NCBI GenBank assembly: GCA_007135125.1
Contig: SLJK01000057.1
Coordinates: 3,612-67,611 of the forward strand
DNA length: 64,000 nt
Source of the DNA: Syntrophomonadaceae bacterium
Lineage (GTDB): Bacteria > Bacillota > Dethiobacteria > DTU022 > UBA8154
Direction: 5' to 3'
The notes beneath the pieces were generated by a model. It was not told the origin of the DNA, did not search any database, and saw only the letters and a program-made list of their open reading frames with translations. This document shows, one piece after another, positions 3 to 19,740 of this stretch (positions are counted from its first letter, which is position 1; every line of letters starts with the position of its first letter). The translations under genes and the position numbers were made by a program.

Positions 3-560
3 GTGGACTATGATTCGGTAGGCCAGACAGGTGCCATCATGGGTTCCGGTGGGATGATTGTAATGGATGAAACAACCTGTATGGTGGATATGGCACGCTT
101 TTTCCTTGATTTTGTGCAAAACGAATCCTGTGGTAAATGCGTTCACTGCCGCCTGGGCACCAAGAGAATGCTGGAGATTTTGACACGTATTACCGAGGGT
201 AAAGCTCAACCCGAAGAACTGGATCTGTTGGAAGAACTGGCCTATAACGTCAAGGAAGGATCACTGTGCGGTCTGGGGCAAACCGGCCCCAATCCTGTGC
301 TGACAACTCTTAAATATTTCCGCGATGAGTACGAAGCACATATTATGGATCGCAGTTGTCCGGCCAAGGTATGCCGAGAGCTTCTAACATTTACTATAGA
401 TCCGGAGTTATGTAATGGCTGCCGACGCTGTGTAAAGCGCTGTCCGACAGAATGCATTACGGGTGAAAAGAAAGAACCCCATGTTATTGACCAGGATAAG
501 TGCATCAAATGTGGAAATTGCTATGATGCTTGCAAGTTTGATGCCGTTATAATGGAGTAA
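3..560 (+). CDS. NADH dehydrogenase NuoF/HndC-like flavoprotein subunit, C-terminal part (5' partial at window edge)
   Basis: ORF open to the window start. ESCGKCxxCRxG motif typical of the NuoF N3 [4Fe-4S] site, followed by two CxxCxxCxxxCP ferredoxin motifs. Confidence 0.7.
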
Positions 561-608: not shown

Positions 609-3600
609 ATGAGTAAAGCACGAATTAACATAAATAGACAGGAACTTACTGGATATACCGACCAGACTATTTTAGAAGTTGCAAAAGAAAATAGCATAGA
701 AATTCCCACCCTTTGTTTTAGCGGCGAACTGGAAATATATGCTTCCTGCGGACTCTGCCTGGTTGAGGTAGAGGGAGCGCCTCGTCTCCTCAGGGCGTGC
801 GCCACAAAAATCACTGACGGGATGGTTATACAGACTGACAATGAAAAGATTAAAAAAGCTCGCAAATTGGCACTGGAGCTAATTCTTTCAGATCACGCAG
901 GAGACTGCCGCGCCCCCTGTGTGCTGGCCTGCCCTGCTAACTGTGATGCCCAGGGATATGCCGCCCTGGTGGCCAACGGCCAGTATAGGGAAGCATTGAA
1001 ATTGGTGAAAGAGTTCATGCCTATACCTGCTTGTATAGGGAGGGTTTGTCCGGCGCCCTGTGAGGACAATTGCCGCCGAAACCTAGTTGAAGATCCTGTC
1101 TCCATACGCTATTTCAAGCGTCTAATAGCTGATTTGGATTTAGCCAGTGATGATCCATATCGTCCGGAAGTAGAACCTGACACTGGAAAAAAGATAGCGG
1201 TGGTTGGCTCCGGCCCAGCGGGATTGACTGCTGCATATTTTCTACGGCGTAATGGTAACTCTGTAACCATATTTGAGTCTTTACCGGAGATGGGTGGTAT
1301 GCTGCGCTACGGTATCCCCGAGTACCGCCTTCCCAAGACCGTGCTGGATGCAGAAATTCAGCAGATCTTGGATCTGGGGGTGGAGGCAAAAACCGGTGTC
1401 CAATTGGGTGAGGATTTTAGTATTGATTACCTTTTCAAGAATGGTTTTGATGCTGTTTATTTGGCAATAGGTGCACAGAACAGCCGTAGGATGGGTGTTC
1501 CAGGTGAAGATATGCCCGGAATTTTAGGAGGAACAGAATTCTTAAGGGCGGTAATGCTTAATGAAGAAGTCAGCCTGGGAGAAAAGGTGGCCGTAATCGG
1601 TGGTGGAAATACAGCGATGGACGCTGCCAGGACAGCCAAGCGGCTGGGTTCAAAAGTCACCGTGGTTTATAGGAGGGCCAGGGAGCAGATGCCTGCTCAG
1701 GCAATAGAGGTGGACGAAGCAGAAGAAGAAGGAGTAGAGTTATACCTGCTGGCAAACCCGGTTAAAATCGAAGGGGACGGCAAAGTAGAAAAGATGGTTT
1801 GCCAAAAGATGCAGTTAGGAGAACCTGATGCATCGGGACGGCGTAGGCCCGAACCTATCCCTGATGAATATTTTACCCTGGAAGTGGATACTATCATCGC
1901 TGCCATCGGGCAGGATGTTGGAATTGAGAATATTAAGGATGATGTCGATATTGATAAGTGGAACACCATCCATATTGAAGAAGATACCTTTATCACCAAT
2001 GTTCCCGGTGTCTTTGCCGGTGGGGACGCTGTGACCGGCCCCGGAATAGCCATTGAAGCTATTGCTGCAGGGAAACGCGTCACCGAAGTAATTGAAAATT
2101 ACCTGGGCGGAAAAATGGCACCCTATAAAACTTATTATGATATTAAACAAGAAGATCTTACCGAAGAGGATTTTGCGGATAGGGAAAAACAGGAAAAAGT
2201 CAAAATGCCAATCACTGCTCCGGAGGTTCGTGTTCAGAACTTCCGTGAGGCAGAGCAGGGAATAAGCCCAGAGGATGCTTTGAAAGATGGACAGCGGTGT
2301 CTGGAGTGCGGTTGTTTTGATTCATTCGAGTGCAAACTTCGTGATTATGCTACAACCTACCAGGCCAGACCGGAACGTATCGGCGGAGAAAAACATGATT
2401 ATGAAACAGAGGTTCATCCCTTTATTATAAGAGACCAGAATAAATGTATTCTCTGTGGATTATGTGTACGAACCTGCAGTGAAATTATTGGGGCGGAGGC
2501 TCTGGGACTGGTTAACCGTGGATTTGATGCATATGTCAGCCCATCTTTAGACCTTCCGCTGGAGGAAACTTCCTGTATCGCTTGCGGTCAGTGTGTAGCG
2601 GCTTGCCCTACAGGTGCACTGGTTGAAAATATGCCCTTCGATAAGCCAGCTCCCTGGCAGTTTAAAGAAACGGTTTCTATTTGCGGTTACTGCGGTGTAG
2701 GATGCAGCCTGCAAGTGGAAACCATCGGTAATAAAATAGCCAGGATGGTGCCTTATGAAGGACCTGTCAATGAAAGCACTCTTTGTAGTAAAGGACGTTT
2801 CGGTTTCGATTTCGTTAATTCCGAGAACAGGTTAAAAACACCTCTCATCAAAGAAAACGGCCAACTTAAGGAGACAACCTGGAAAGATGCGCTTCTTTAT
2901 ATTTCCAAGAGAGCAAAGTCATTAAAGGCTCGCTTTGGCGGAGAAAGCATGGCTGTATTTGCCGGACCTCGCTACAGCAACGAGGAGAGCTACCTTATTC
3001 AAAAGTTTGCCCGTGGCGTTTTGGGCAGTAACAACATAAATAGCTTTGGCGAAAAGGACAATCCCCTGGCAGAGGTTTTGGGATGGGGAGCATCAACAAA
3101 TTCCTACCAGGAAATAGGTGCAGCTGATTTTATACTGGGCGTAGGAGTAGACTTTACAGACTACCCCATTGTTGCTTTAAAGATGAAGCTGGCCTCAGAA
3201 CAGGGTGGAAAAATGTGGTTGGTGGATAAAATAAAACCAAAGCTGGGCAGTTATGCCGAAAAAGTCTTTTTAGTTAATGAAAAAGCTGATACAGATATTT
3301 TTGTAGCTATGCTGGCCTATTCTTTACAAGAAGGCATTGTAGATAAAGGGTTTACAGGCACCTTTACATCTAATTTCAATGAGTTAAAAGAAAAACTTGA
3401 AAAGAAAAATATTGAGGAGCTGATAACCAACAGCGGCCTTACTAGAGATGACATCTCTACACTGGTGAAAGGTTATGCGGAAGCGAAAAAACCGCTACTG
3501 ATACTTGGTAGTAACAACTTGAGTTCCGAGGCAGCCCAGGTACTGGCCGGGCTAGCGATGCTGCTTGGCAAAGTGGGCAAGCCACGACAGGGAATTCTTA

Positions 3601-4334
3601 ACCTTCGAGGACGCTGTAACAGCCAGGGCATGCTTGATGCCGGTGTTTCTCCTTCTTATTTGAGCGGTTATCAAAAGGTAACTGATGAGCTCAGCAGGAA
3701 TAAATTTGCCCACACGTGGAAAGTCCAGCTGCCTCAAAAAGAGGGATTAAATACAGCGGAAGTACTGGATAACGTGGAAAATGGTAATATTAAGGGCTTA
3801 TTTGTCTTTGGTGAGGATCCAGACGCACCAACATCCCAAAAACTGGCTCAATCGGAATTTTTGGTAGTGCAAGACCTTTTCCTAACAGATCTGGCCAAAC
3901 AGGCTGATGTAGTTCTGCCAGCTGCCAGTTTTGCTGAAACAGAAGGAAGCTTTACAAATAGTGAGCGCCGGGTCCAAAAATTGCGGCCGGCCCTGGCATC
4001 CCCGGCCGGCAAACAAAATTGGGAAATAATGTTAGATTTAATGGAGATGACCGGGTTCCACCAGCAATTTTCATCGCCGGAAGATGTTTGGAATGAAATA
4101 AGGAAGTTATCACCTATTTTTGAAGAAATCACTTACGCCGAACTGGATAATGCTCCTTATTGGGGTGGTTCACCTGTATGCATGATTGACGAATTGGTTA
4201 ATGCCAACGGAAAACTAAAATTCATGCTGCCCGAAAAGGGAGTACCCGTTTTTGAGGAAATTACTATTGTTGACAGTGCTCTTAAATGGTACAGGGAATT
4301 TATGACGGAAAAAGGGCTTCAAAAACTGGTTTGA
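609..4334 (+). CDS. Multidomain Fe-S flavoprotein: 2Fe-2S ferredoxin N-terminus, GltD-like NAD(P)H/FAD domain, 2x[4Fe-4S], and a molybdopterin-oxidoreductase (NuoG/FdhA-like) domain with no apparent MGD C-terminal domain
   Basis: 1241-aa ORF. VVGSGPAGLTAAYFL Rossmann motif of glutamate synthase small-chain type. CxxCxxCxxxCP motifs. SICGYCGVGCS MopB Fe4S4 motif. No Sec/Cys-His active-site signature was visible. Confidence 0.6.
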   Translation: MSKARININRQELTGYTDQTILEVAKENSIEIPTLCFSGELEIYASCGLCLVEVEGAPRLLRACATKITDGMVIQTDNEKIKKARKLALELILSDHAGDCRAPCVLACPANCDAQGYAALVANGQYREALKLVKEFMPIPACIGRVCPAPCEDNCRRNLVEDPVSIRYFKRLIADLDLASDDPYRPEVEPDTGKKIAVVGSGPAGLTAAYFLRRNGNSVTIFESLPEMGGMLRYGIPEYRLPKTVLDAEIQQILDLGVEAKTGVQLGEDFSIDYLFKNGFDAVYLAIGAQNSRRMGVPGEDMPGILGGTEFLRAVMLNEEVSLGEKVAVIGGGNTAMDAARTAKRLGSKVTVVYRRAREQMPAQAIEVDEAEEEGVELYLLANPVKIEGDGKVEKMVCQKMQLGEPDASGRRRPEPIPDEYFTLEVDTIIAAIGQDVGIENIKDDVDIDKWNTIHIEEDTFITNVPGVFAGGDAVTGPGIAIEAIAAGKRVTEVIENYLGGKMAPYKTYYDIKQEDLTEEDFADREKQEKVKMPITAPEVRVQNFREAEQGISPEDALKDGQRCLECGCFDSFECKLRDYATTYQARPERIGGEKHDYETEVHPFIIRDQNKCILCGLCVRTCSEIIGAEALGLVNRGFDAYVSPSLDLPLEETSCIACGQCVAACPTGALVENMPFDKPAPWQFKETVSICGYCGVGCSLQVETIGNKIARMVPYEGPVNESTLCSKGRFGFDFVNSENRLKTPLIKENGQLKETTWKDALLYISKRAKSLKARFGGESMAVFAGPRYSNEESYLIQKFARGVLGSNNINSFGEKDNPLAEVLGWGASTNSYQEIGAADFILGVGVDFTDYPIVALKMKLASEQGGKMWLVDKIKPKLGSYAEKVFLVNEKADTDIFVAMLAYSLQEGIVDKGFTGTFTSNFNELKEKLEKKNIEELITNSGLTRDDISTLVKGYAEAKKPLLILGSNNLSSEAAQVLAGLAMLLGKVGKPRQGILNLRGRCNSQGMLDAGVSPSYLSGYQKVTDELSRNKFAHTWKVQLPQKEGLNTAEVLDNVENGNIKGLFVFGEDPDAPTSQKLAQSEFLVVQDLFLTDLAKQADVVLPAASFAETEGSFTNSERRVQKLRPALASPAGKQNWEIMLDLMEMTGFHQQFSSPEDVWNEIRKLSPIFEEITYAELDNAPYWGGSPVCMIDELVNANGKLKFMLPEKGVPVFEEITIVDSALKWYREFMTEKGLQKLV

Positions 4335-4393: not shown

Positions 4394-5278
4394 ATGGCAG
4401 CAAAAATTATTTCTGGTAAAGACGTAGCGGCGGAAATCAGGGCAGAATTAAAAGATCAGGTGGCAGATTTAAAGACAAAAGGTATTGTACCCGGGTTAGG
4501 TGTGGTCCTTGTAGGTGAAGATCCAGCATCGGTATCTTATGTTACCAGCAAGGCTAAAGGTTGTGAAGAAATTGGAATGTACGAAGAAACGGTTCGCCTT
4601 GATGCGGATACTCCTGAGGATGAAGTCCTGAAAGTAATCGATAGGATGAATAAAGATCCCAAGATCAGCGGGATCCTGGTTCAGCTTCCTCTCCCCGATC
4701 ATATCAGCGTAGAAAACGTTATCAGCTACATCTCCCCGGAGAAAGACGTTGATGGTTTTCACCCCGTCAACCTCGGCAAACTGTTACGAGGCGAACCCTG
4801 CCCACTACCCTGTACTCCTCATGGTGTCAAGCAGCTTCTGGAACGTTCAGGAAACGATCCTTCCGGCAAGCATGTAGTCATCTGTGGCCGCAGCAATATT
4901 GTGGGCAAACCGCTTGCAGCAATTCTTATGCAAAAAGCTAAAGGAGCCAATGCTGTGGTAACAGTGGTTCATACCGGTGCCAAAGATATACCCTATTATA
5001 CCAAGCAGGCTGATATCCTGGTGGCAGCTATGGGCAAGCCCGGAGCCATCACTGCAGACATGGTCAGTGAAGGAACTGTAGTTGTCGATGTAGGGGTTAA
5101 CCGGATTCCTGATGATACCAAAAAGAAAGGCTTCCGTCTTGCGGGAGATGTAGACTATGAACCCGTTGCCGAAAAAGCCTCTTACATTACCCCTGTGCCC
5201 GGTGGCGTAGGACCTATGACTGTAACTATGCTGCTTTATAATACGGTAGAAGCGGCTGTAAGACTTAACCAGGGTTAG
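4394..5278 (+). CDS. folD: Bifunctional methylene-THF dehydrogenase/methenyl-THF cyclohydrolase FolD (canonical copy)
   Basis: SYVTSKAKGCEE (YxxxK), KDVDGFHP, GRSNIVGKP and PVPGGVGPMT motifs all present. Strong RBS AAAGGAGGAGG upstream. Confidence 0.9.
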   Translation: MAAKIISGKDVAAEIRAELKDQVADLKTKGIVPGLGVVLVGEDPASVSYVTSKAKGCEEIGMYEETVRLDADTPEDEVLKVIDRMNKDPKISGILVQLPLPDHISVENVISYISPEKDVDGFHPVNLGKLLRGEPCPLPCTPHGVKQLLERSGNDPSGKHVVICGRSNIVGKPLAAILMQKAKGANAVVTVVHTGAKDIPYYTKQADILVAAMGKPGAITADMVSEGTVVVDVGVNRIPDDTKKKGFRLAGDVDYEPVAEKASYITPVPGGVGPMTVTMLLYNTVEAAVRLNQG

Positions 5279-5292
5279 GAGGTAGAACAATT

Positions 5293-6150
5293 TTGACTGC
5301 CAGGCTTATTAAAGGAGATGAGGTTGCCGAAGAAGTCAGGGCTGAAATTTCGTCAGAGCTAAAAGATCTATACGATGGCACTGGCTATGTAGCTGGGCTG
5401 GCAGTTATTGTTGTGGGAGAAAACCCTACTTCTTTAGCATATATTTCTAATTGTGAGAAACAGGGCGAAAAGATGGGGATTAGTATTCAAGTTCACCGTC
5501 TGGACCAAAATATATCTCAAGAAGAATTGCTTGAAATAATCGAAGAGCTAAATGATGATTTCTTCATACACGGTATTATGATCCAGATGCCCTTACCAGA
5601 ACATCTGGATCATAAAGTGATTGTAGAAACAATCGATCCGGACAAAGATGTTGAAGGAGTCCACCCGATTACTATGGGTAAACTTTTTAGTGATGAAAAA
5701 AGTTTTATACCATGTACTGCCCATAGTATTATGAAAATGATTGAACATACCAGGCAGCCTGTTTATGGAAAATCAGCAGTAATAATCGGCCGCAGCAATA
5801 TAGTAGGTAAACCGCTTTCTCTTTTACTTCTAAGAAGAAATGCTTCCATTACTATATGTCATACAGGCACAGTAAATTTACCAGATATCTGTCGGGAAGC
5901 AGATATAGTTGTGGCAGCAGCGGGCACTCCTTACATGGTAGAAGGAAACTGGATTAAGCAAGATGCAATTGTACTTGATGTTGGGGTTACCCAGGTGGAA
6001 GATAAAATGGTGGGTGATGTTAATTTCCAAGAATGCAGAGAAGTAGCCAGTTGGATTTCTCCTGTTCCCGGTGGGGTAGGGCCACTAACTATTACAATGC
6101 TGATGTGGAACACATTGGAAGCTTTTCGCAAAAAAATGGATCGAATTTAA
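5293..6150 (+). CDS. FolD-family paralog 2 (divergent; Cys where the catalytic Lys is expected)
   Basis: Full-length FolD fold with GRSNIVGKP and PVPGGVGP. AYISNCEKQGE replaces YVASKRK. KDVEG replaces KDVDG. TTG start after AGGAGG. Confidence 0.75.
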   Translation: MTARLIKGDEVAEEVRAEISSELKDLYDGTGYVAGLAVIVVGENPTSLAYISNCEKQGEKMGISIQVHRLDQNISQEELLEIIEELNDDFFIHGIMIQMPLPEHLDHKVIVETIDPDKDVEGVHPITMGKLFSDEKSFIPCTAHSIMKMIEHTRQPVYGKSAVIIGRSNIVGKPLSLLLLRRNASITICHTGTVNLPDICREADIVVAAAGTPYMVEGNWIKQDAIVLDVGVTQVEDKMVGDVNFQECREVASWISPVPGGVGPLTITMLMWNTLEAFRKKMDRI

Positions 6151-6273
6151 CGTTTCCTTGCGTAAAACATAGTAGTTAAACACCAGCAAATGCCGGGGGA
6201 TTCCTTTTGGATGGCCTATTCCCCCGGCATGTTACCTTTGAAAACATCTGGTGTTTTGAAGGGAGGTACAGAG

Positions 6274-7116
6274 TTGGCAGCAAATATTATTAGAGGAGAA
6301 ACTATTGCCCAAGAATTACATGACAATCTTAAACATGAAGTAGCAAAGTTAAAGGAAGACCGAGGAATAACTCCTTGCATGGCCATTATCGTGCTTAAAA
6401 GTCCTGTTTCCCGAATTCATGTAGCGCGCTTAAAAGAGAGAACAAGCCAGCAATTAGGAATAAAATGTCAAATATTTACCCTGCCGGAGACCACCACTGA
6501 GGAAGAGATAAACTATCTTACCGAACGTCTCAATACAGCTAAAGAAGTTCATGGTATCAATATACACCCCCTTACTCCCCATCTCAATCATACCCTTATT
6601 TCGCAGATGGTGGATCCCCGTAAAGATGTTGAAGGCCTAAACTTTTTAAATATGGGTGCCTTTTTGAGTGGGGATTTTAGGATGGTCCCGTTTGTAGCAA
6701 GAGGCATTATGAAATTAATCGAACACACGGGTGAAGATCTGGAAGGGAAAAGGGCTGTTGTTGTGGGACGCAGCCAGTTAGTCGGAGAACCAGTTTCCTT
6801 TTTGTTACTGGAACAAAATGCTACTGTCAGTGTGTGTCATTCCATGACCCCGGACCTATCCACTTTTACGAAAAAGGCTGATGTACTGGTCGTTTCAGCC
6901 GGTCAACCACGTATCATAAAAGGCAATATGGTCAAAGAAGGAGCCATCGTTATTGATGTTGGCGTTAATCAAGTTGGAACCAGGCTGATTGGCGATGTGG
7001 ATTATGATACCGTTAAAGATAAAGCAAGCTGGATTACTCCTGTACCGGGAGGAGTTGGTCCTGTAACCATAGCTATGCTCCTGGATAACCTTGTTAAAGC
7101 TGCCAAGTATTCATGA
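6274..7116 (+). CDS. FolD-family paralog 3 (divergent; His in place of the motif Tyr, altered DVDG region)
   Basis: GRSQLVGEP and PVPGGVGPVT conserved. RIHVARLKER in place of YVASKRK. KDVEGLNF in place of KDVDGFHP. Probable TTG start at 6274 after GGGAGG; the ORF track extends it to 6190. 4-nt overlap with xseA. Confidence 0.7.
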   Translation: MAANIIRGETIAQELHDNLKHEVAKLKEDRGITPCMAIIVLKSPVSRIHVARLKERTSQQLGIKCQIFTLPETTTEEEINYLTERLNTAKEVHGINIHPLTPHLNHTLISQMVDPRKDVEGLNFLNMGAFLSGDFRMVPFVARGIMKLIEHTGEDLEGKRAVVVGRSQLVGEPVSFLLLEQNATVSVCHSMTPDLSTFTKKADVLVVSAGQPRIIKGNMVKEGAIVIDVGVNQVGTRLIGDVDYDTVKDKASWITPVPGGVGPVTIAMLLDNLVKAAKYS

Positions 7117-8375
7117 GAGAAGCAGTAGTATATACCGTTACCCAGCTTAATCAACATATAAAAAGATTGCTTCTAAAAGACAACCTACTTCAAGAAGTTC
7201 TGGTGGTAGGAGAGATATCTAATTACAAACATCATACTCCTTCCGGACATATCTATTTCACTCTGAAAGATGAAAATAGCATACTACGCTGCGTCTTTTT
7301 CCGCCATAAAAACCGTGAACTAACATTTATTCCTGCTGAGGGAATGAGAGTCCTGGCCGGGGGAAATATTTCTCTTTATGAGCGCGGCGGAATCTACCAG
7401 CTTTACATTGCCAGTTTGGAACCTGAAGGACTTGGAGCTCTATATCTGGCTTATGAACAGTTAAAGGAAAGACTCGCCCAAGAAGGGCTTTTTGAAATAC
7501 AACATAAACGATTATTACCTTTTATCCCTCAAAAAATAGGCCTCATTACTTCTTCTTCCGGGGCCGCGGTAAGGGATTTTTTATCTGCACTGGGTAGAAG
7601 ATTTCCTTGCGTAGAAGTGCTCTTTAAGCCGGCAGCTGTACAGGGGACAGAAGCTCCGGCTCAGATCATAGATGCACTGGAAAAATTAGATCAAGAAGAT
7701 TTGGATGTTATTGTTATCACAAGAGGGGGCGGTTCCTTAGAAGAACTGTGGGCCTTGAATGATGAAAAGCTGGCCAGGGCAATTTTCCATTCCGGAACAC
7801 CTGTGGTGAGCGCAGTGGGTCATGAAACGGATTATACCATTGCTGATTTTGTAGCAGATATGAGAGCTTCAACCCCAACTGCCGCCGCCGAACTTATAAC
7901 TCCCCAAAAAGACGAACTGTTGAAAAACATTGAAGTTTTTAAATCTCGATTACAGGATGCCTGGCGATATAAGCAAAGAGAGAGAGACAATTTACTGGAA
8001 AGATTTGAACGTGCCGTAGCATTCAGGTATCCTTATGATAAAATAAATACCGGTAACCAGAGATTGGATGAACTCTGGGGGCGGCTGACCAGAAATATAT
8101 CAGTCCAGCTGCAAAAAAAAGCAGATAACTTACAGGGCAGCGCGAATAGGCTTAATAATTTAAACCCTTTGCAGGTCTTAAATAGAGGCTTCGCCTTTGT
8201 CATGGACAAAGAAAAGAAGCCGGTAAACGGTATTTCTGCCCTGGATCCGGGGCAAAATATTGAAGTGCTATTTAGTGACGGAATTGCTTTCTGTACAGTG
8301 GACAAAATTAGACAGAAAAAACTTTCTTCGGGAGAAGGGGGAGCAAATTGCCTGAAAAAGAAACGGAGCAGATGA
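7113..8375 (+). CDS. xseA: Exodeoxyribonuclease VII large subunit
   Basis: Length and N-terminal OB-fold region (VYTVTQLNQHIKRLL) typical of XseA. Synteny folD-xseA-xseB-ispA. Confidence 0.85.
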   Translation: MREAVVYTVTQLNQHIKRLLLKDNLLQEVLVVGEISNYKHHTPSGHIYFTLKDENSILRCVFFRHKNRELTFIPAEGMRVLAGGNISLYERGGIYQLYIASLEPEGLGALYLAYEQLKERLAQEGLFEIQHKRLLPFIPQKIGLITSSSGAAVRDFLSALGRRFPCVEVLFKPAAVQGTEAPAQIIDALEKLDQEDLDVIVITRGGGSLEELWALNDEKLARAIFHSGTPVVSAVGHETDYTIADFVADMRASTPTAAAELITPQKDELLKNIEVFKSRLQDAWRYKQRERDNLLERFERAVAFRYPYDKINTGNQRLDELWGRLTRNISVQLQKKADNLQGSANRLNNLNPLQVLNRGFAFVMDKEKKPVNGISALDPGQNIEVLFSDGIAFCTVDKIRQKKLSSGEGGANCLKKKRSR

Positions 8376-9574: not shown

Positions 9575-10190
9575 GTGAGAACTGTTAAATTGTGCTATAA
9601 TTCTGTTGGATGTAGGTGGTGCAGTATCCTAGTTGGCAAACACTTCTGAAAACGGGCCTAAAAATCCGTTTAAGGGCACATCAATGAAGTCCCTGGTGCT
9701 GGCCGCTGAAGCCCAGTTGGGGGCTGGTGCTGGGGGTTAAGAAGGATGGGGCGATCTACAAAGGCATGTAGGCGTTGACCCTACCTTCGCGGAGACCTAA
9801 GATGGTGGTTCTTATCGAAAGGTAAGTTCTACTGCTTGGGGAAGAACCTGTGTGAGGCAGACGCTTTGCACAGTGTAGCCTGCCTTGAGTGGTGACGGGG
9901 GATAAGTGCTGTCTTTCAGGACTGGGAAACCGTCATTGAAAAGAGGCTAGGAAGTGTTCAATGCCAGCGAGGAAAACTCCTAGGCTGTTCCCATGGGGAG
10001 GCTCTATGGGGATTAAAGTGTGGTCTTAGTGGTAATCCAGCCCTGCTGTTGGCAACATGGCAGAGATGCTCTTAAAAGGTAACTGCCTTTCCGGTGACGG
10101 TGGGTGGGCATCTGGGAAATCCTGCTGGACCTTAAGCCGCAAAGTTTACTCATAGGGCTGCCACCTGCGTCTTTTTGTTATATCGTTGAG
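9575..10190 (+). ncRNA. ole: OLE (ornate large extremophilic) RNA, about 600 nt
   Basis: A ~630-nt gap with no ORF between ispA and a 4-TM membrane protein gene (oapA) that sits directly upstream of dxs. This is the characteristic ispA-ole-oapA-dxs-tlyA-nadK-recN arrangement described for OLE RNA loci. The sequence is GC-balanced and structured-looking. I could not run a covariance search. Confidence 0.7.
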
Positions 10191-10198
10191 GTGTTTAT

Positions 10199-10777
10199 TT
10201 GGCCAGAAGAACTGCAAAACAGAAAAAACGTGCATTGCGCTGGGCAATTATGGTTACTTTTTGGACTTTTCTGGTAGCCTTCGTTTTTGCACTGACCATG
10301 CGCTTCATTCTTCATGGTATACAGTCGATCATTATTTCTTTCCTGCTTCTTTTATTTATTATTTTTATCGGCGTACTCTTCGATACTATAGGCACGGCAG
10401 TAACAGCTGCCAACGAAACGCCGTTCCATTCCAAAGCCTCCAAAAAAGTTTATGGTGCGCAAAAAGGGATTTACCTGGTCCGGTATGCTGACCAGGTAGC
10501 TAACTTTTGCAATGATATGATTGGGGATATTAGCGGCGTGGTTAGCGGCGTGGTTGGTGCAGTAATTATTTTCAACCTGGTCCTGGCCCGGCCGGAACTG
10601 AGTGAAATATATTTAAGTATTATTTTAACCGCCGTAGTGGCTGCACTAACCGTGGGGGGAAAAGCGCTAGGAAAATATTTAGCAATCAGCAGGCCCACAG
10701 AAGTAGTGTTATTGTTTGCCCAGGTGCTTACCACTATAGAAAAAGTATCTTTAAGAAAGAAACAAAACAGGTATTAA
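10199..10777 (+). CDS. oapA: OLE-associated protein A (small polytopic membrane protein)
   Basis: 192 aa with about 4 predicted TM segments. TTG start after GAGGTG. Position immediately 3' of the OLE candidate and 5' of dxs. Confidence 0.65.
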   Translation: MARRTAKQKKRALRWAIMVTFWTFLVAFVFALTMRFILHGIQSIIISFLLLLFIIFIGVLFDTIGTAVTAANETPFHSKASKKVYGAQKGIYLVRYADQVANFCNDMIGDISGVVSGVVGAVIIFNLVLARPELSEIYLSIILTAVVAALTVGGKALGKYLAISRPTEVVLLFAQVLTTIEKVSLRKKQNRY

Positions 10778-14521: not shown

Positions 14522-16225
14522 GTGCTCTTAATGCTTAATTTGCGTGATTTTGCACTGATCGATTCTCTTACCCTGGATTTTTATCCCGGGTTGAATGTCC
14601 TAACTGGAGAAACCGGGGCAGGAAAATCAGTTATTATCGGTGCGATTGGTCTTATTTTGGGCGAAAGGGCTTCGACTGAGCATATAAGGGCTGGCAGCGA
14701 GCAGGCTTTTCTGGAGGCAGTTCTTTCTTTAGCTGATGCTCCTTCCCAGCTTAAAACAATAATGGAGCAGCATGGGATACCTGTTGAGGAAGAAATTATT
14801 ATATCCAGGGAAATATCTATAAGTGGTCGCAATATCTGCCGCGTAAACGGGCGCACCGTACCTCTAACGACACTAAAAGAACTCGGAAATTACTTAATTG
14901 ACCTTCACGGGCAGCACAGTCATCAATCTCTTCTGAAAACCGAGAGGCATCTTTTTCTTTTAGACGAGTTTGGTGACCTTGAGCTAATACAAACCAAACA
15001 AAAGCTCCAGAAACTATATGATCGGCGTCAAGAGGTTGCCGAAAAATTAAATTACCTGGGTGCCAGTGCGGATGAAAGGCTGAGACAGCTTGAATTGCTG
15101 CGATTTCAAAGGGACGAAATTATGAGCGCTTCTGTGAGTGCTGCCGAAGAACAAGAGCTATCTAAAAGACTTTCCCTGTTAGATAACAGGGAAAAACTAC
15201 TTCAAGTTTTAAACAAAGCCTATAACGATATATATGGTGGTGAATCATCCTCTATTTCTTGCCTGGACACTATAAATAACATTCAAGCAGAGCTTTCTTC
15301 TTTCAGCGACCTGGACTCTCAGATCGCTTATTTTGTGGATTCATTGGAACAGATAAGCGTCAGCCTTAATGAACTGGGACATGACTTATTTGGTTATCTG
15401 GAAAATTTAGAAGTTTTTCCCCAGGAAAGAGAAGAAATTGAAAGCAGGTTGGAATTGTACCGTCGCCTAAAAAATAAATACGGTGCTACGGTGGAAGAGC
15501 TGCTTTCCTTTGCTTCACGGTGCAAGCAAGAACTTGAAGCGCTCGAAGAAAACGAAAATAAGGCACTGCAGCTGGAAAAAGAACTGCAAGCCATAGAAGA
15601 GGAACTGCACAATGTTTCAGAACACCTTACTTCTATGCGGAAAAATGTTGCCCATCTACTGGAAAAAGAAGTTCAATCCATCATTGAGGAACTGGGTATG
15701 GAAAAGGGACGCTTTCATGTAAACATTTCTTCGCAAAACTCGATACAGCGTTCCGGAAAAGAAAAGGTGGAGTTTTTATTTTCTGCCAACCCGGGCGAAC
15801 CGCTAAAATCACTGGCCAAGATTATCTCTGCTGGTGAAATGTCTAGAGTTATGCTGAGCTTAAAATGCATACTGGCCAAGCAGGACAATATCCAGACCCT
15901 TATCTTTGATGAGATTGACAGCGGAATTGGCGGGAGGACTATCCAAAAGGTTTCAGAAAAAATGGCTAGTTTGGGCAATAATCACCAGGTAATTTGTGTT
16001 ACTCACAGCCCGCATATAGCTAGCGCAGCTCATCATCAATTTTATATTTTTAAAGAATTTAGGGAGGAACGGACGGTAACCTTTGTCGAGAAAATTAGCG
16101 GGGAAGAAAGGCTTTCAGAGATAGCACGTCTTTTAGATGGAGAAAGTACAAGCACAATTACCAGAAAACATGCACAGGAACTTTTACAAAAAGCAAAATA
16201 TATGGCAAACAATCAGGAGCATTAA
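14522..16225 (+). CDS. recN: DNA repair protein RecN
   Basis: Walker A (GETGAGKS), long coiled-coil, C-terminal signature/Walker B region. Probable start at ATG 14531. Confidence 0.9.
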   Translation: MLLMLNLRDFALIDSLTLDFYPGLNVLTGETGAGKSVIIGAIGLILGERASTEHIRAGSEQAFLEAVLSLADAPSQLKTIMEQHGIPVEEEIIISREISISGRNICRVNGRTVPLTTLKELGNYLIDLHGQHSHQSLLKTERHLFLLDEFGDLELIQTKQKLQKLYDRRQEVAEKLNYLGASADERLRQLELLRFQRDEIMSASVSAAEEQELSKRLSLLDNREKLLQVLNKAYNDIYGGESSSISCLDTINNIQAELSSFSDLDSQIAYFVDSLEQISVSLNELGHDLFGYLENLEVFPQEREEIESRLELYRRLKNKYGATVEELLSFASRCKQELEALEENENKALQLEKELQAIEEELHNVSEHLTSMRKNVAHLLEKEVQSIIEELGMEKGRFHVNISSQNSIQRSGKEKVEFLFSANPGEPLKSLAKIISAGEMSRVMLSLKCILAKQDNIQTLIFDEIDSGIGGRTIQKVSEKMASLGNNHQVICVTHSPHIASAAHHQFYIFKEFREERTVTFVEKISGEERLSEIARLLDGESTSTITRKHAQELLQKAKYMANNQEH

Positions 16226-16330
16226 AGACCCTACTACCTTTGTTTTATTTTCTATATAAAAGGATTTCATGGCACCTTTGTGGAATAACTTATTCATATT
16301 TCTGGATTTTTATTTAAGGGGTATACATTT

Positions 16331-17218
16331 ATGGAAGATCTGCTACAAAATTTTATTTACTACCTCTCTGTTGAAAAAGGACTGGCTCAAAATACCCTGG
16401 ATTCATACCGGCGTGATCTGAAAAAATTTACTCAATACTTGAAACGCCACCATATAACCGATGCAAAGGCTATTTCCAGAAAAAATATTTCCAATTATTT
16501 ACTTGAACAAAAAGAGTTGGGACATTCTTCTTCCACCATATCCAGGAATATAGCATCAATCCGTTCTTTTTTCCAGTTTCTTCTCATAGAACAGAAAATA
16601 AAGGATAATCCCTGTTCAGATCTGGATTCACCAAAGGCAGAAAAAAAACTTCCACATATCATATCTGCAAAGGACATTGATCTCCTTCTTGAGCAACCTC
16701 AAATAGGAGATATAATAGGAAGACGGGACAAGGCCATGTTAGAATTGCTTTATGCTACCGGTGTTAGGGTTACAGAACTTGTTTCACTGAATGTGGAAGA
16801 TATAAACTTAAAAATGGGTTTTCTGCGATGTAATGGAAAAGGGGGAAAAGAACGGATGGTCCCCTTAGGTTCGCTGGCTATAAAGAGTCTGCAGGACTAC
16901 CTTCGCAGCAGCAGGCCAGGTATACTTAAGAAAAGTGATAATAAGGCGCTTTTTGTCAATCAACATGGAAAACGTTTAACCAGGCAGGGATTCTGGAAGA
17001 TTTTAAAGAAGTACTGTCAAAGAGCAGGAATAAGTGGTGATATAACCCCCCATACTCTGCGCCACTCTTTCGCAACTCACTTGCTGGAAAACGGGGCTGA
17101 TCTACGGTCAGTACAGGAGATGTTGGGGCATGCTGACATTTCAACTACCCAGATTTATACCCAGATTAACAGAAGGAAAATACAGGAAATATATAATCAA
17201 ACTCATCCCAGGGCTTGA
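16331..17218 (+). CDS. xerD: Tyrosine recombinase XerD (chromosome dimer resolution)
   Basis: R..HxxR..Y catalytic region (HTLRHSFATHLLENGADLRSVQEMLGHADISTTQIYT). Conserved xerD-deoB-pdp neighbourhood. Confidence 0.85.
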   Translation: MEDLLQNFIYYLSVEKGLAQNTLDSYRRDLKKFTQYLKRHHITDAKAISRKNISNYLLEQKELGHSSSTISRNIASIRSFFQFLLIEQKIKDNPCSDLDSPKAEKKLPHIISAKDIDLLLEQPQIGDIIGRRDKAMLELLYATGVRVTELVSLNVEDINLKMGFLRCNGKGGKERMVPLGSLAIKSLQDYLRSSRPGILKKSDNKALFVNQHGKRLTRQGFWKILKKYCQRAGISGDITPHTLRHSFATHLLENGADLRSVQEMLGHADISTTQIYTQINRRKIQEIYNQTHPRA

Positions 17219-17236
17219 ATAAGGAGTGCAGCGTCC

Positions 17237-18427
17237 ATTCATAAAAACAGGGCTATTATCATTGTTTTAGATGGCGCAGGTGTAGGGGCTTTACCTGATT
17301 CCTTCAATTATGGGGATGAAGGAAGCAACACCCTTGGTCACATTCTTTCTTTAAGAGGGGATATGTACTTACCAAATCTGTTTTCACTGGGTCTGGAATC
17401 TATTCTTGGTTTGAAAAAAGGAGCAGAGGAAGAATACAAGGGAGCATTCGCTAAAATGGCACAACTTTCCCCTGCTAATGATACTACGTCAGGTCACTGG
17501 GAGCTGGCAGGACTCGTTCTGAAAAGCGCCTTCCCTGTTTATCCCCGGGGATTTCCGCAGGAAATAGTATTGTTATTCGAAAACTATATTGGCCGCAAGA
17601 TCCTTGGTAATGTTGTTTCATCAGGCACTGAAATTATTAAGCAGTTAGGAAAGAAGCATTTGCAGACGGGATTTCCTATCTTATATACCTCCGCAGATAG
17701 TGTTTTTCAACTGGCAGCTCATGAAAAAATAATTCCACTGGACACGTTGTATAACTGGTGTAGATTCGCGCGGGAAAATATTTTGGTTGAAGAACATGCA
17801 GTGGCAAGAGTCATCGCAAGGCCTTTTAATGGCGAAGAAGGTAATTTTTGGCGTACAGATGGCCGACGAGATTTTTCACTTGAGCCACCTGAACCCACCG
17901 TGTTGGACCTGTTAGTAGATTCCGGATTACAGGTATGGGCAGCTGGGAAAGTCAAAGATATTTTTGCCGGAAAGGGCGTAACTGTTCATCTTCCCGCATC
18001 GGGCAACGACAATATCATAAACTCAGTTACTACTGCACTGGAAAAAGATTTTAGCGGCCTTTTATGGGCTACCCTGGTCGATTTTGATATGTTATATGGC
18101 CATCGAAATGATGCAGCTGGCTTTGCAGATGCATTGGAAAATTTTGATCAGCAGCTTGGTGTGCTTATGCAAAAGGTCAAGAAAGATGATATCCTTTTCA
18201 TTACTGCTGATCACGGTTGTGATCCGACTTTTCAAGGGACAGACCATACCAGAGAATATGTACCGCTTTTCGTTTATGGTGAAGGAGTACAGCCGGTAGA
18301 TCTTGGTATACGGAAGAGCTTTGCAGATCTGGGACAGACTATAGCAGACATTTTAGGTTGTCAAAATACCAAAAACGGAAAGAGTTTCGCAGTAGAGTTG
18401 TTTGACAGGGGAGATGTAAATCTATGA
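17237..18427 (+). CDS. deoB: Phosphopentomutase; apparent AUU start
   Basis: The ORF track starts at an internal ATG (17363). The conserved N-terminus (IHKNRAIIIVLDGAGVGALPDSFNYGDEGSNTLGH) is in frame upstream. The frame is closed by the xerD stop at 17216. The only plausible initiator is ATT 17237, 10 nt after AAGGAG. Confidence 0.7.
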   Translation: MHKNRAIIIVLDGAGVGALPDSFNYGDEGSNTLGHILSLRGDMYLPNLFSLGLESILGLKKGAEEEYKGAFAKMAQLSPANDTTSGHWELAGLVLKSAFPVYPRGFPQEIVLLFENYIGRKILGNVVSSGTEIIKQLGKKHLQTGFPILYTSADSVFQLAAHEKIIPLDTLYNWCRFARENILVEEHAVARVIARPFNGEEGNFWRTDGRRDFSLEPPEPTVLDLLVDSGLQVWAAGKVKDIFAGKGVTVHLPASGNDNIINSVTTALEKDFSGLLWATLVDFDMLYGHRNDAAGFADALENFDQQLGVLMQKVKKDDILFITADHGCDPTFQGTDHTREYVPLFVYGEGVQPVDLGIRKSFADLGQTIADILGCQNTKNGKSFAVELFDRGDVNL

Positions 18428-19740
18428 GGGGATTAGATCTAATCTTAAAAAAAAGAAATGGTGAAAGCCTTTCACCCGATGAAATAAATTTTTTGGTTAA
18501 GCAATTCAATGAAGGCGTTATCCCTGATTACCAGATGGCTGCATTATTAATGGCAGTTTTTTTTCAAGGTTTCAGTAATAAAGAAACAAACGCACTTACT
18601 ACTGCCCTGGCAAGTTCTGGAGAAATGCTCGATTTTTCATTTTTGAGCGATATTGTGGTAGATAAACACAGCAGTGGGGGGGTTGGTGACAAAGTAACTT
18701 TGATCCTGGCACCTCTGGTTGCAGCTGCTGGGATTCCGGTTGCCAAACTTTCAGGCCGCAGTCTTGATTTTACAGGGGGCACTATTGACAAACTGGAAAG
18801 TATTCCCGGCTTTAATGCAAATCTTTCTATTGACCGTTTTATGGAGCTGGTCAGTGAACACGGGCTTGCTATTATGGCCCAAACAGACAGGATTACCCCT
18901 GCCGAAGGCAAACTGTACGCTCTGAGAGATGCTACAGGGACAGTTGATGACATTTCTCTTATTGCTGCATCTATCATGAGTAAAAAAATCGCTGCAGGTG
19001 CCAGCGCCATCTTACTGGATGTCAAAACAGGCAGCGGAGCCTTTATGCAGAGTAAAGATGAAGCATTTCATCTTGCTGAAACGATGATACGTATCGGAAA
19101 AGATCTGGGAAAACGTACAGTTGCCTTGATTACGGACATGAATCAACCCCTGGGATTTGCTGTCGGTAACGCTCTGGAGGTAAAAGAGGCAGTACATGTA
19201 TTACAGGGAGAAGGGCCGCGAGATGTAGAGCAGCTTTGCTTGATTCTAGGCGGGTACCTCATGGCTCTAACAGGCAAGGTCAGGAATGCGGAAGAAGGTC
19301 AGGTTCAATTATCCAGGCTCATCAACAGTGGGGCGGCCTATGAAAAATTCAAGCAACTAGTTGTGGCACAAGGTGGAGATAAAGCTTTTCTGGAGGATCT
19401 GTCACTGTTACCAAAAGCATCATATATACAGGAGATTCATGCCGGCAAGGATGGCTACCTGGTTGAAATTGACGCAAAAAGGGTTGGAAAAGCTGTATCA
19501 CTGCTGGGAGCAGGTCGCGCTTCTAAAGAACAGCAAATTGATCATGCAGTAGGGTTGGTATTAAACCACAAGGTGGGTGACAGCATCATAAAAGGTGAAA
19601 CGCTTGCATTTATACACAGCAATAATCAGGAAAACTTTGGAACTGCATTGAAAGAGTTATCCAATGCTTTTTCAATCAAAGCCGAAGCGGTTGAGATCCC
19701 ACCCCTTGTATATGGTGTGGTACCACCATTTCCCAGTTAA
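18424..19740 (+). CDS. pdp: Pyrimidine-nucleoside (thymidine) phosphorylase
   Basis: 438 aa with glycosyltransferase family 3 motifs (DKHSSGGVGDK). Start overlaps the deoB stop. Confidence 0.85.
   Translation: MRGLDLILKKRNGESLSPDEINFLVKQFNEGVIPDYQMAALLMAVFFQGFSNKETNALTTALASSGEMLDFSFLSDIVVDKHSSGGVGDKVTLILAPLVAAAGIPVAKLSGRSLDFTGGTIDKLESIPGFNANLSIDRFMELVSEHGLAIMAQTDRITPAEGKLYALRDATGTVDDISLIAASIMSKKIAAGASAILLDVKTGSGAFMQSKDEAFHLAETMIRIGKDLGKRTVALITDMNQPLGFAVGNALEVKEAVHVLQGEGPRDVEQLCLILGGYLMALTGKVRNAEEGQVQLSRLINSGAAYEKFKQLVVAQGGDKAFLEDLSLLPKASYIQEIHAGKDGYLVEIDAKRVGKAVSLLGAGRASKEQQIDHAVGLVLNHKVGDSIIKGETLAFIHSNNQENFGTALKELSNAFSIKAEAVEIPPLVYGVVPPFPS

Follow-up and report, generated by a model that had tools for sequence, protein, structure and literature searches.

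Three tandem FolD-family paralogs in a Syntrophomonadaceae bacterium, one from a conserved subfamily with a candidate new function

Introduction

Three consecutive genes of the FolD family, the bifunctional methylene-tetrahydrofolate (methylene-THF) dehydrogenase/cyclohydrolase, lie between the genes of a predicted transhydrogenase and xseA in a 64,000-nucleotide (nt) stretch of DNA from a Syntrophomonadaceae bacterium (GenBank assembly GCA_007135125.1, contig SLJK01000057.1, positions 3,612 to 67,611 of the forward strand), which we call the window and whose numbering is used throughout. We refer to the three genes, in their order along that strand, as copies 1, 2 and 3, and report that copy 3 belongs to a subfamily in which residues of the FolD folate pocket have been replaced and the replacements fixed.

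The key residues of FolD (Tyr52, Lys56, Gln100, Leu101, Asp125, Gly273 and Gly276, in the human numbering used below) have been mapped (PMC3368264) and described as strictly conserved in orthologues (PMC3338484). Tyr52, Gln100, Leu101 and Asp125 hold the folate in orientation and place the Lys, which is needed for cyclohydrolase activity. A cross-kingdom survey reported no ancient FolD duplications in prokaryotes (PMC11064299), and in 'Ca. Contubernalis alkaliaceticus' three adjacent FolD-family genes (HUE98_10805-10815) were merely listed (PMC10608574). Our literature search found no paper describing the H-x4-K / GINIHP / KDVEG subfamily to which copy 3 belongs.

Results

The folD array

Both Pfam domains of the family, PF00763 and PF02882, are found in each of three consecutive open reading frames (ORFs) on the forward strand (E=1e-22 to 1e-64, all passing the gathering scores), as the initial annotation had proposed in calling them tandem FolD-family paralogs (Table 1). 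Each also matches every solved FolD/MTHFD structure (E=1e-42 to 1e-72, phmmer against the PDB). The three proteins are 38-48% identical to Escherichia coli FolD and only 39-41% identical to one another; they are old paralogs, and a recent duplication yielding near-identical copies is ruled out by that figure. Pseudogene status is likewise ruled out for all three, by intact ORFs and by ratios of nonsynonymous to synonymous substitution (dN/dS) far below 1. The array forms part of an operon-like block nusB - nfnCBA (Stn-type) - folD1 - folD2 - folD3 - xseA.

Table 1 Features of the window discussed in the text
Feature	Position	Strand	Description
NfnB/StnB-type NuoF-like subunit (predicted), C-terminal part	3..560	+	Pfam NADH_4Fe-4S and 2x[4Fe-4S]; cut by window start
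NfnA/StnC (predicted)	609..4334	+	1241 amino acids (aa); 2Fe-2S, NfnL/GltD-like FAD/NADPH and Fdh/NuoG-like domains
folD copy 1	4394..5278	+	294 aa; predicted canonical bifunctional FolD
folD copy 2	5293..6150	+	285 aa; TTG start; Lys-less paralog, NADP motifs intact
GC-rich inverted repeat ATGCCGGGGGA...TCCCCCGGCAT	6190..6230	+	in 123-nt spacer upstream of copy 3
folD copy 3	6274..7116	+	280 aa; TTG start (most likely); subfamily with remodelled folate pocket
xseA (exonuclease VII large subunit)	7113..8375	+	Pfam Exonuc_VII_L and OB fold
OLE RNA	9600-10180	+	full-length; Rfam RF01071, 466 bits
OapA-like membrane protein gene	10199-10777	+
XerD-like recombinase gene	16331-17218
IspH/LytB fused to four S1 RNA-binding domains	27153-29252	+	699 aa; ispH-rpsA-type fusion

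The third ORF is open from an ATG at 6190 (6190-7116), yet the start of copy 3 is most likely the TTG at 6274, because nearly all of its homologues are 280 aa long and begin MAANII...; this TTG is preceded by GAAGGGAGG, which includes a GGGAGG ribosome-binding site. At its other end copy 3 overlaps xseA by the 4 nt (ATGA, 7113-7116) that had been noted, and its place in the ancestral folD slot before xseA is supported. Such an overlapping junction is common to most related loci (given below by our locus numbers), while in L003 the two genes abut without overlap and L101 has no xseA.

The inverted repeat upstream of copy 3 may be a partial terminator or a processing hairpin. The 141-nt stretch 6145-6285 that contains it folds with -43.2 kcal/mol (z = -1.8); a consensus terminator scan did not call the hairpin, the promoter and terminator consensus scan gave matches no commoner than in shuffled sequence, and Rfam found no riboswitch or known element in the spacers. 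A hairpin followed by a T-run also lies 5' of copy 3 in L001, L085, L086, L087, L093 and L096. More generally, the spacer (6150-6274 in the window, and its counterparts in these six loci and L088) usually holds a GC-rich hairpin, often with a T-rich run after it, and the hairpin sequence varies among loci. It could act as a leaky terminator between an nfn-folD module and a copy 3-xseA operon. GC content at third codon positions (GC3) is 0.42-0.47 in nfnB, nfnA and copy 1 (0.42 in copy 1 itself), 0.31 in copy 2, and 0.35-0.37 in copy 3, xseA, ispA and dxs; together with the spacer hairpin these values set nfn and copy 1 apart from copy 3 and xseA. The pattern fits a separately evolving or highly expressed nfn and copy 1 module and an AT-drifting copy 2.

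Copy 3 and its conserved subfamily

The signature of copy 3 consists of SRIHVARLKER (H-x4-K), GINIH-PL, KDVEG (KDVEGLN) and PFVA, which replaces PCTP; its NADP motifs are intact. KDVEG for KDVDG had been pointed out by the initial annotation and is confirmed, but a loss of the catalytic Lys, as its call of substitutions at catalytic positions might suggest, is not: the Lys of copy 3 aligns with Lys56 in phmmer, MAFFT and HHalign comparisons, and is retained in every alignment. The suggested replacement of Tyr by His holds in part. Tyr is absent, and a His pairs with Tyr52, through a one-residue insertion, in three of four alignments (phmmer against the PDB, a 237-sequence MAFFT alignment and an HHalign profile-profile comparison), whereas one ungapped MAFFT run places a Val there. 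Gln100 and Leu101 are represented by a single His, a change that the initial annotation had overlooked.

A homologue search recovered at least 69 clusters at 90% identity with the copy 3 signature. They form a core clade at 59-100% identity and a sister clade at 48-53% that includes the FolD C0GE27 of Dethiobacter alkaliphilus, and their hosts are uncultured anaerobic Firmicutes and Dethiobacter. When clustering is at 50% identity, in a library of 1.84 billion representatives, one representative stands for all of them, and the score falls from 486 to 356 bits at the next match, which is canonical; the H-K-H-E quartet, which stands in copy 3 for Tyr/Lys/Gln/Asp, occurs in none of the other 149 listed representatives. 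The matches listed by a profile search of genome contigs, in which the full-length copy 3 alignment was reduced to a generic TPVPGGVGP pattern, were canonical FolDs at 38-46% identity. A search of metagenome contigs with the N-terminal domain of copy 3 gave 13 loci, mostly on short contigs, which were used for synteny.

We compared alignment columns across 54 core copy 3, 15 sister and 130 canonical sequences. Lys56, His100 and Glu125 are present in 100% of the core clade, and Arg173, Ser174, His196, Ser197, the GxSxxVGxP motif (G172-P180) and the PGGVGP motif (P270-P277) in 89-100%. A set of switches is conserved at 81-100%: Y52H, L98N, Q100H, deletion of L101, D125E, F127L and P129F, and further C147F, T148V, P149A, I176L and M278V. 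The states at Tyr52, Gln100/Leu101 and Asp125 are fixed in 98-100% of the core clade, and four of the switches (L98N, Q100H, deletion of L101, D125E) are likewise fixed in the Dethiobacter-type sister clade; the same positions are 89-100% invariant in the 130 canonical FolDs. According to these columns, remodelling has affected the folate pocket and the environment of the Lys but has spared the NADP(H) site. The AlphaFold2 model of copy 3 (predicted local distance difference test score 93.7, predicted template-modelling score 0.91) superposes on FolD structures at template-modelling (TM) scores of 0.84-0.95. Copy 3 lies below the cut-off of all NCBIfam FolD models (best score 284 bits, cut-off 437).

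Copies 1 and 2

Copy 1 has all seven key residues (Y52, K56, Q100, L101, D125, G273 and G276; MAFFT), and every canonical motif that had been listed for it was found. The NADP site is common to all three window copies (Arg173, the Ser197 site, GRSxxVGxP and the Gly273/Gly276 loop, PGGVGP), apart from the replacement of Ser197 by Thr in copies 1 and 2, which agrees with the claim that copies 2 and 3 keep the NAD(P)-binding fold. Copy 1 is 85-88% identical across related loci in which copy 3 reaches 59-74% and copy 2 41-71%. It belongs to a separate FolD lineage that bears an NRIPDxxKKKGFRLAGDV insertion, and barely reaches the NCBIfam model NF010783 (333.0 against a cut-off of 333). Its dN/dS between related loci is 0.01-0.05 (Nei-Gojobori), which indicates very strong purifying selection on what appears to be a canonical bifunctional FolD.

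In copy 2, the Lys56 position (Lys54 in E. coli) is a Cys within AYISNCEKQGE, and KDVEG gives Glu for Asp125; both were called in the initial annotation, and phmmer against PDB FolDs and MAFFT bear them out. IQMPL brings in a further change, Leu101 to Met, while Tyr52 and Gln100 are kept, as are GRSNIVGKP (with Arg173), CHT and PGGVGP. The window copy 2 has lost only Lys and Asp125 of the catalytic and cofactor set, and its best NCBIfam score (334 bits, cut-off 396) falls below the cut-off. In its clade position 56 is Lys in about half of the members and otherwise Ile, Leu, Ala, Cys or Thr, and position 125 is Asp or Glu. Five loci (L086, L092, L093, L094 and L096) have a middle gene without PGGVGP, GRSNIVGKP, KDVDG, Tyr52 and CHS whose ORF is still full-length; PGGVGP, GRS and CHS are never lost in copy 3. 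In these five orthologues the motifs are gone and the ORF is under selection, as is characteristic of pseudoenzymes, and the non-catalytic role that had been suggested is reasonable for copy 2.

Phylogeny, selection and gene arrangements

A neighbour-joining tree (77 sequences, 283 columns, 100 bootstraps) gave 100% support each to the copy 3 core, to the core with its sister clade, to the copy 2 clade including its degenerate members, and to the copy 1 clade. Copies 2 and 3 therefore form diverged clades of their own. The sister of the copy 2 clade consists of the canonical FolDs directly upstream of copy-3-type genes in the Dethiobacter-type loci L003 and L101.

Informative dN/dS values (Nei-Gojobori) came from locus pairs with synonymous divergence (dS) below about 1.5 and from one further pair, L084-L100. 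Copy 1 gave 0.01-0.04 in the former. Copy 3 gave 0.11-0.15 in these and 0.046 in L084-L100, and is constrained everywhere. Neighbouring genes gave similar values: xseA 0.12 in the single pair with dS < 1.5 (0.06-0.18 over all pairs with finite dS) and, in L084-L100, xseA 0.080, nfnA 0.071 and dxs 0.083. For copy 2, dN/dS is 0.18-0.25 where copy 1 is present, motif-degenerate forms included, and 0.064 in L084-L100, in which the locus has no copy 1; relaxed selection on copy 2 is confined to loci that have copy 1. Copies 2 and 3, which the initial annotation had treated as one kind, thus behave in opposite ways, the one variable and decaying, the other with a fixed new signature.

Sixteen distinct loci have a visible gene upstream of the copy-3-type gene. 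Ten carry copies 1, 2 and 3 (the window, L086, L088, L089, L091-L094, L096 and L105), two carry copies 1 and 3 (L001 and L085), two combine a Stn-type transhydrogenase with a Lys-less copy 2 and copy 3 (L084 and L100), and two have a canonical FolD with a sister-type copy 3 (L003 and L101). The copy-3-type gene hence adjoins a Lys-keeping FolD (copy 1, a Lys-bearing copy 2 or a Dethiobacter-type FolD) in 14 of the 16; in L084 and L100 only a Lys-less copy 2 stands beside it. A further locus, L104 (GCA_900198705.1, FZPS01000036.1, 171568-188452), shows a truncated NfnL, a copy-1-type and a copy-2-type gene and no copy 3, and its fragment ends abruptly at an MTTB methyltransferase. The 3.3-Mb record may be concatenated or a chimeric bin; L104, which looks like a joined fragment, was left out of the analysis, and per-genome FolD counts from this record are unsafe. 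In the metaproteome of the acetate oxidiser unFirm_1, a highly expressed FolD is encoded beside an FchA-like gene; it is not assignable to copy 1, 2 or 3 and was not used.

The upstream transhydrogenase

The long ORF upstream of copy 1 encodes, in order, a 2Fe-2S domain, a GltD/NfnL-like domain binding flavin adenine dinucleotide (FAD) and NADPH, 4Fe-4S clusters and an Fdh/NuoG-like domain. Over about 1000 residues its product matches both NfnA of the Caldicellulosiruptor saccharolyticus NfnABC (9bov_A, E=0, 1085 bits) and StnC of the Sporomusa ovata Stn complex (8oh5_C, E=5e-303). This end-to-end match rules out a formate dehydrogenase or a glutamate synthase, and S. ovata StnC has no formate activity (PMC7483475). 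In L102 (GCA_007126665.1 and GCA_003563065.1, taken as the same assembly) nusB is followed upstream of these genes by a NuoE-like gene and then by one for a full NuoF-like protein of 589 aa, and the gene content comprises the full subunit set of the Bfu/Stn-type NfnABC (NuoE-like, NuoF-like and large NfnA/StnC) whose architecture has been described (PMC7483475, PMC11829005). The upstream genes are thus predicted to encode a Bfu/Stn-type electron-bifurcating NADH-dependent ferredoxin:NADP oxidoreductase.

In the block from nusB to the FolD genes, 14 distinct loci have readable upstream sequence. Nine carry NfnAB of the NfnSL type (L001, L003, L085, L086 and L091 are examples) and five the Stn type (Bfu/Stn-type NfnCBA, in L084, L088, L089, L100 and L102), so that two unrelated bifurcating transhydrogenases occupy one chromosomal site, in what looks like a functional module swap. 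Stn and Nfn are functional equivalents in acetogens and almost mutually exclusive (PMC7483475), and in Moorella nfn lies upstream of an NADP-dependent folD in an NADPH-supply arrangement (PMC6405883). Since both the nfn-folD linkage and the equivalence of Stn and Nfn are already explained in the literature, no new complex is required. The proposal that the NuoF-like and GltD/NuoG-like genes form a new redox complex coupled to one-carbon (C1) chemistry is accordingly not supported: they correspond to the known NfnABC/Stn, NfnAB stands at the same site in relatives, and there is the Moorella precedent.

Other features of the window

Downstream of the array, a full-length ornate large extremophilic (OLE) RNA lies between ispA and the gene of an OapA-like membrane protein, upstream of dxs, as in the classical arrangement; at this position relatives show about 600-1050 nt without annotation. 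In the region 14522-19740, beyond recN, the window carries the XerD-like recombinase gene, a phosphopentomutase-like gene and one for pyrimidine nucleoside phosphorylase. In related loci recN is followed immediately by spoIVB and spo0A. Synteny is broken at this point, and the window lacks the sporulation genes there. The window also encodes an IspH/LytB fused to four S1 domains.

Discussion

We favour the reading that the locus holds three FolD paralogs in three evolutionary states, of which copy 3 would be an old, non-redundant and neofunctionalised FolD derivative, and put its probability at roughly 0.45. Copy 1 would be the functioning FolD, an NADP-dependent bifunctional methylene-THF dehydrogenase/cyclohydrolase that works alongside the transhydrogenase, which keeps NADPH in balance with NADH and ferredoxin. 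Copy 2, which would descend from the original canonical FolD of the locus, looks like a decaying ex-FolD or a pseudoenzyme. Having lost the general acid/base Lys it should be at most a dehydrogenase without cyclohydrolase activity, by analogy with the E. coli FolD variant K54N, which keeps about 19% of dehydrogenase activity and has no detectable cyclohydrolase activity (PMC5688156). Where copy 1 is present, copy 2 would drift towards a pseudoenzyme under relaxed selection.

Copy 3 probably does something beyond normal FolD. From its residue states, clades, selection and synteny we infer, with moderate confidence, that it is a catalytically active enzyme which depends on NADP(H) and differs from FolD in its folate-type substrate or in the pose of that substrate. 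The protein would still bind NADP(H) and present its Lys, while the residues that hold methylene/methenyl-THF have given way to a His near position 52, Asn98, a His for Gln100/Leu101, Glu125, and Phe-Val-Ala for Cys147-Thr148-Pro149. Its most likely reaction is a hydride transfer in which NADP(H) is one partner and the other is either a pterin/folate-type compound sitting in a changed pose or a different folate derivative; acid/base catalysis would fall to the Lys-His-Glu set, and classical cyclohydrolase activity would be low. Its retention beside a canonical FolD since before the split from Dethiobacteria argues that copy 3 is not redundant with FolD. Copy 3 also differs from the decaying copy 2: once copy 1 had arrived, selection was relaxed on copy 2 and not on copy 3, whose cofactor site, Lys, His100 and Glu125 are fixed. 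The new specificity that the initial annotation had allowed for is a reasonable suggestion for copy 3.

A narrower version of this reading, which we regard as speculative and rather unlikely in its details, would make the copy 3 clade a new enzyme on the FolD scaffold, an oxidoreductase that uses NADP(H) and whose substrate is a folate or pterin other than canonically posed methylene/methenyl-THF. It would not duplicate FolD and would be linked to the NADPH pool that Nfn/Stn sets in uncultured Firmicutes of the Wood-Ljungdahl type. Such an enzyme might transfer hydride without flavin, at another C1 oxidation level, or reduce the pterin ring. In the lineage of L084 and L100, where a Lys-less copy 2 and copy 3 are both strongly constrained, FolD chemistry would then be split between two paralogs, each of them specialised.

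Several points weigh against the neofunctionalisation of copy 3. The single change Q98H in E. coli FolD lowers both activities (about 8% of dehydrogenase and 1% of cyclohydrolase activity remaining; PMC5688156), so copy 3 could be merely a poor FolD; the survival of such mutants has been attributed to spontaneous hydrolysis of methenyl-THF (PMC5688156). A non-catalytic protein that senses NADP(H) would conserve the NADP site too. The ungapped MAFFT run leaves the register of His and Val at Tyr52 ambiguous, dS is saturated in most locus pairs so that the dN/dS values rest on a handful of them, and coexistence was scored at the level of the locus, so that genomes of the L084/L100 type may carry a canonical FolD or an FchA cyclohydrolase at another site.

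Among rival explanations, copy 3 might be an ordinary FolD isoenzyme for the same two reactions, its pocket changes only tuning kinetics, with the copy 3-xseA operon serving anabolic C1 metabolism and nfn with copy 1 serving high-flux Wood-Ljungdahl catabolism. We consider this unlikely, though it accounts for a good deal: copy 3 stands where folD stood ancestrally and overlaps xseA, its GC3 resembles that of xseA, ispA and dxs while that of copy 1 resembles the nfn genes, terminator-like hairpins part it from the upstream folD in many loci, and its Lys, NADP site, carboxylate at 125, G273 and G276 are all retained. Tyr52, Gln100 and Asp125, however, are invariant in the 130 canonical FolDs, and all three are changed and fixed in the copy 3 clade, when Q98H alone takes away nearly all cyclohydrolase activity in E. 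coli (PMC5688156). Moreover, 11-17 nt lie between the canonical and the copy-3-type genes of Dethiobacter-type loci, which share one operon, so separate regulation cannot explain why copy 3 was retained there. We think it improbable, more so than an isoenzyme, that copy 3 is a non-catalytic pseudoenzyme, either an NADP(H)-binding regulator or a heterodimer partner of copy 1 or 2, the latter corresponding to the scaffolding subunit that the initial annotation had suggested. FolD is a dimer, so heterodimers of co-expressed paralogs are conceivable; two or three of the seven key catalytic and binding residues are lost in copy 3, and dead FolD domains are known in MTHFD1L (PMC11064299). Yet where decay is visible, in the copy 2 orthologues, it destroys the NADP and glycine-loop motifs that copy 3 keeps at 89-100%, and Lys56, His100 and Glu125 are complete throughout the copy 3 clade. 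The dN/dS of copy 3 (0.05-0.15) is that of the neighbouring enzymes, and since it accompanies copy 1 alone, copy 2 alone or the two together, it has no evident fixed partner.

That copies 2 and/or 3 are physical subunits of Nfn/Stn, in a ferredoxin/NADH-linked C1 redox complex, seems very unlikely to us. All 14 loci with readable upstream sequence do have NfnAB or the Stn-type NfnABC directly upstream, and an NfnL-like NADPH module is common to both transhydrogenase types (PMC11829005). The purified Stn of S. ovata and NfnABC of C. saccharolyticus, however, are complete active heterotrimers without FolD (PMC11829005, PMC7483475), the adjacency of nfn and folD in Moorella is explained by NADPH supply to an NADP-dependent FolD (PMC6405883), and the interchangeability and near mutual exclusion of Stn and Nfn in acetogens fit a metabolic rather than a structural link. 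Even less probable, we believe, is a role for copy 3 as a spare FolD insensitive to natural carolacton-type inhibitors and so protecting C1 metabolism from them. It is true that E. coli selected with carolacton gains exactly Q98H or changes of Lys54 (PMC5688156) and that the Q98H structure 5o2a is among the fold matches of copy 3, but no biosynthetic or resistance context was found around the genes in the window, the clade is of old origin and keeps its synteny within a core housekeeping block, and many of its extra fixed pocket changes would be needless for resistance.

Among the closest known systems, bifunctional FolD/MTHFD1 (E. coli 1B0A; human DC301 1A4I) has the same PF00763 and PF02882 architecture and the same NADP residues, at 38-48% identity. 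Copy 1 matches it in every key residue and the predicted fold of copy 3 superposes on it, but copy 2 lacks the catalytic Lys, and copy 3 lacks Tyr52 and Gln100/Leu101, has Glu for Asp125 and carries about ten further fixed pocket substitutions. The E. coli carolacton-resistance variants (PMC5688156; 5o2a) are altered at the positions changed in copy 2 (Lys) and in copy 3 (Gln to His); they are, however, single laboratory substitutions on a canonical background, whereas copy 3 shows a co-adapted clade-wide set and the copy 2 clade many different residues at the Lys site. The best analogue of the degenerate copy 2 orthologues is the dead domain of vertebrate MTHFD1L (PMC11064299), in which a FolD module was kept after catalytic loss; that domain is fused to an active synthetase, whereas copy 2 is a free-standing bacterial protein, its window version at an early stage.

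FolD-fold enzymes that catalyse the dehydrogenase step only are represented by yeast MTD1 (1EDZ) and the NAD-dependent enzyme of Acetobacterium woodii, and MTD1 is very distant from copy 2 (E=2e-13). About 19% of the best 150 FolD cluster representatives have a non-canonical Tyr/Lys/Gln/Asp quartet, including Y-I-Q-D (n=7) and Y-Q-Q-E (n=5). Copy 2 (Y-C-Q-E, IQMPL, KDVEG) resembles the Y-Q-Q-E group, most members of which change the ligands of the NADP 2'-phosphate (GHSEIVGKP, CHI.T), whereas copy 2 keeps Arg173. Lys-less FolD homologues thus seem to be a recurrent and largely unannotated theme, and may be monofunctional dehydrogenases. As for gene order, Moorella thermoacetica nfnAB-folD (PMC6405883) has a bifurcating transhydrogenase directly upstream of an NADP-dependent FolD, as in the window. 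In contrast to the systems of Moorella, S. ovata and C. saccharolyticus, the window and its relatives carry two or three downstream FolD paralogs rather than one, and in these relatives the transhydrogenase types replace each other at the same site.

The simplest history that we can infer has three steps. An ancestral nfn-folD-xseA arrangement, as in Moorella, would have undergone a tandem duplication into a canonical FolD, the line of copy 2, and a diverging downstream copy, the line of copy 3; this duplication would predate the split from Dethiobacteria. The later gain of copy 1 would have made copy 2 dispensable, so that it decays in some loci and has been lost in L001 and L085.

In summary, copy 3 represents a real and conserved subfamily, although its fold and pathway are well known. 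FolD is regarded as one invariant step both in folate C1 metabolism and in the Wood-Ljungdahl pathway, and this locus shows a subfamily in which 'strictly conserved' residues are altered and which is still under purifying selection beside a normal FolD, while the middle paralog offers a textbook series of stages from enzyme to pseudoenzyme. Among the hosts are uncultured organisms related to syntrophic acetate oxidisers from digesters and soda lakes. Because all three genes are automatically annotated as 'bifunctional FolD', metabolic reconstructions of these hosts overcount FolD and may miss a distinct activity. If the substrate of copy 3 does prove to be new, it would mean an added step or a bypass in anaerobic C1 metabolism.

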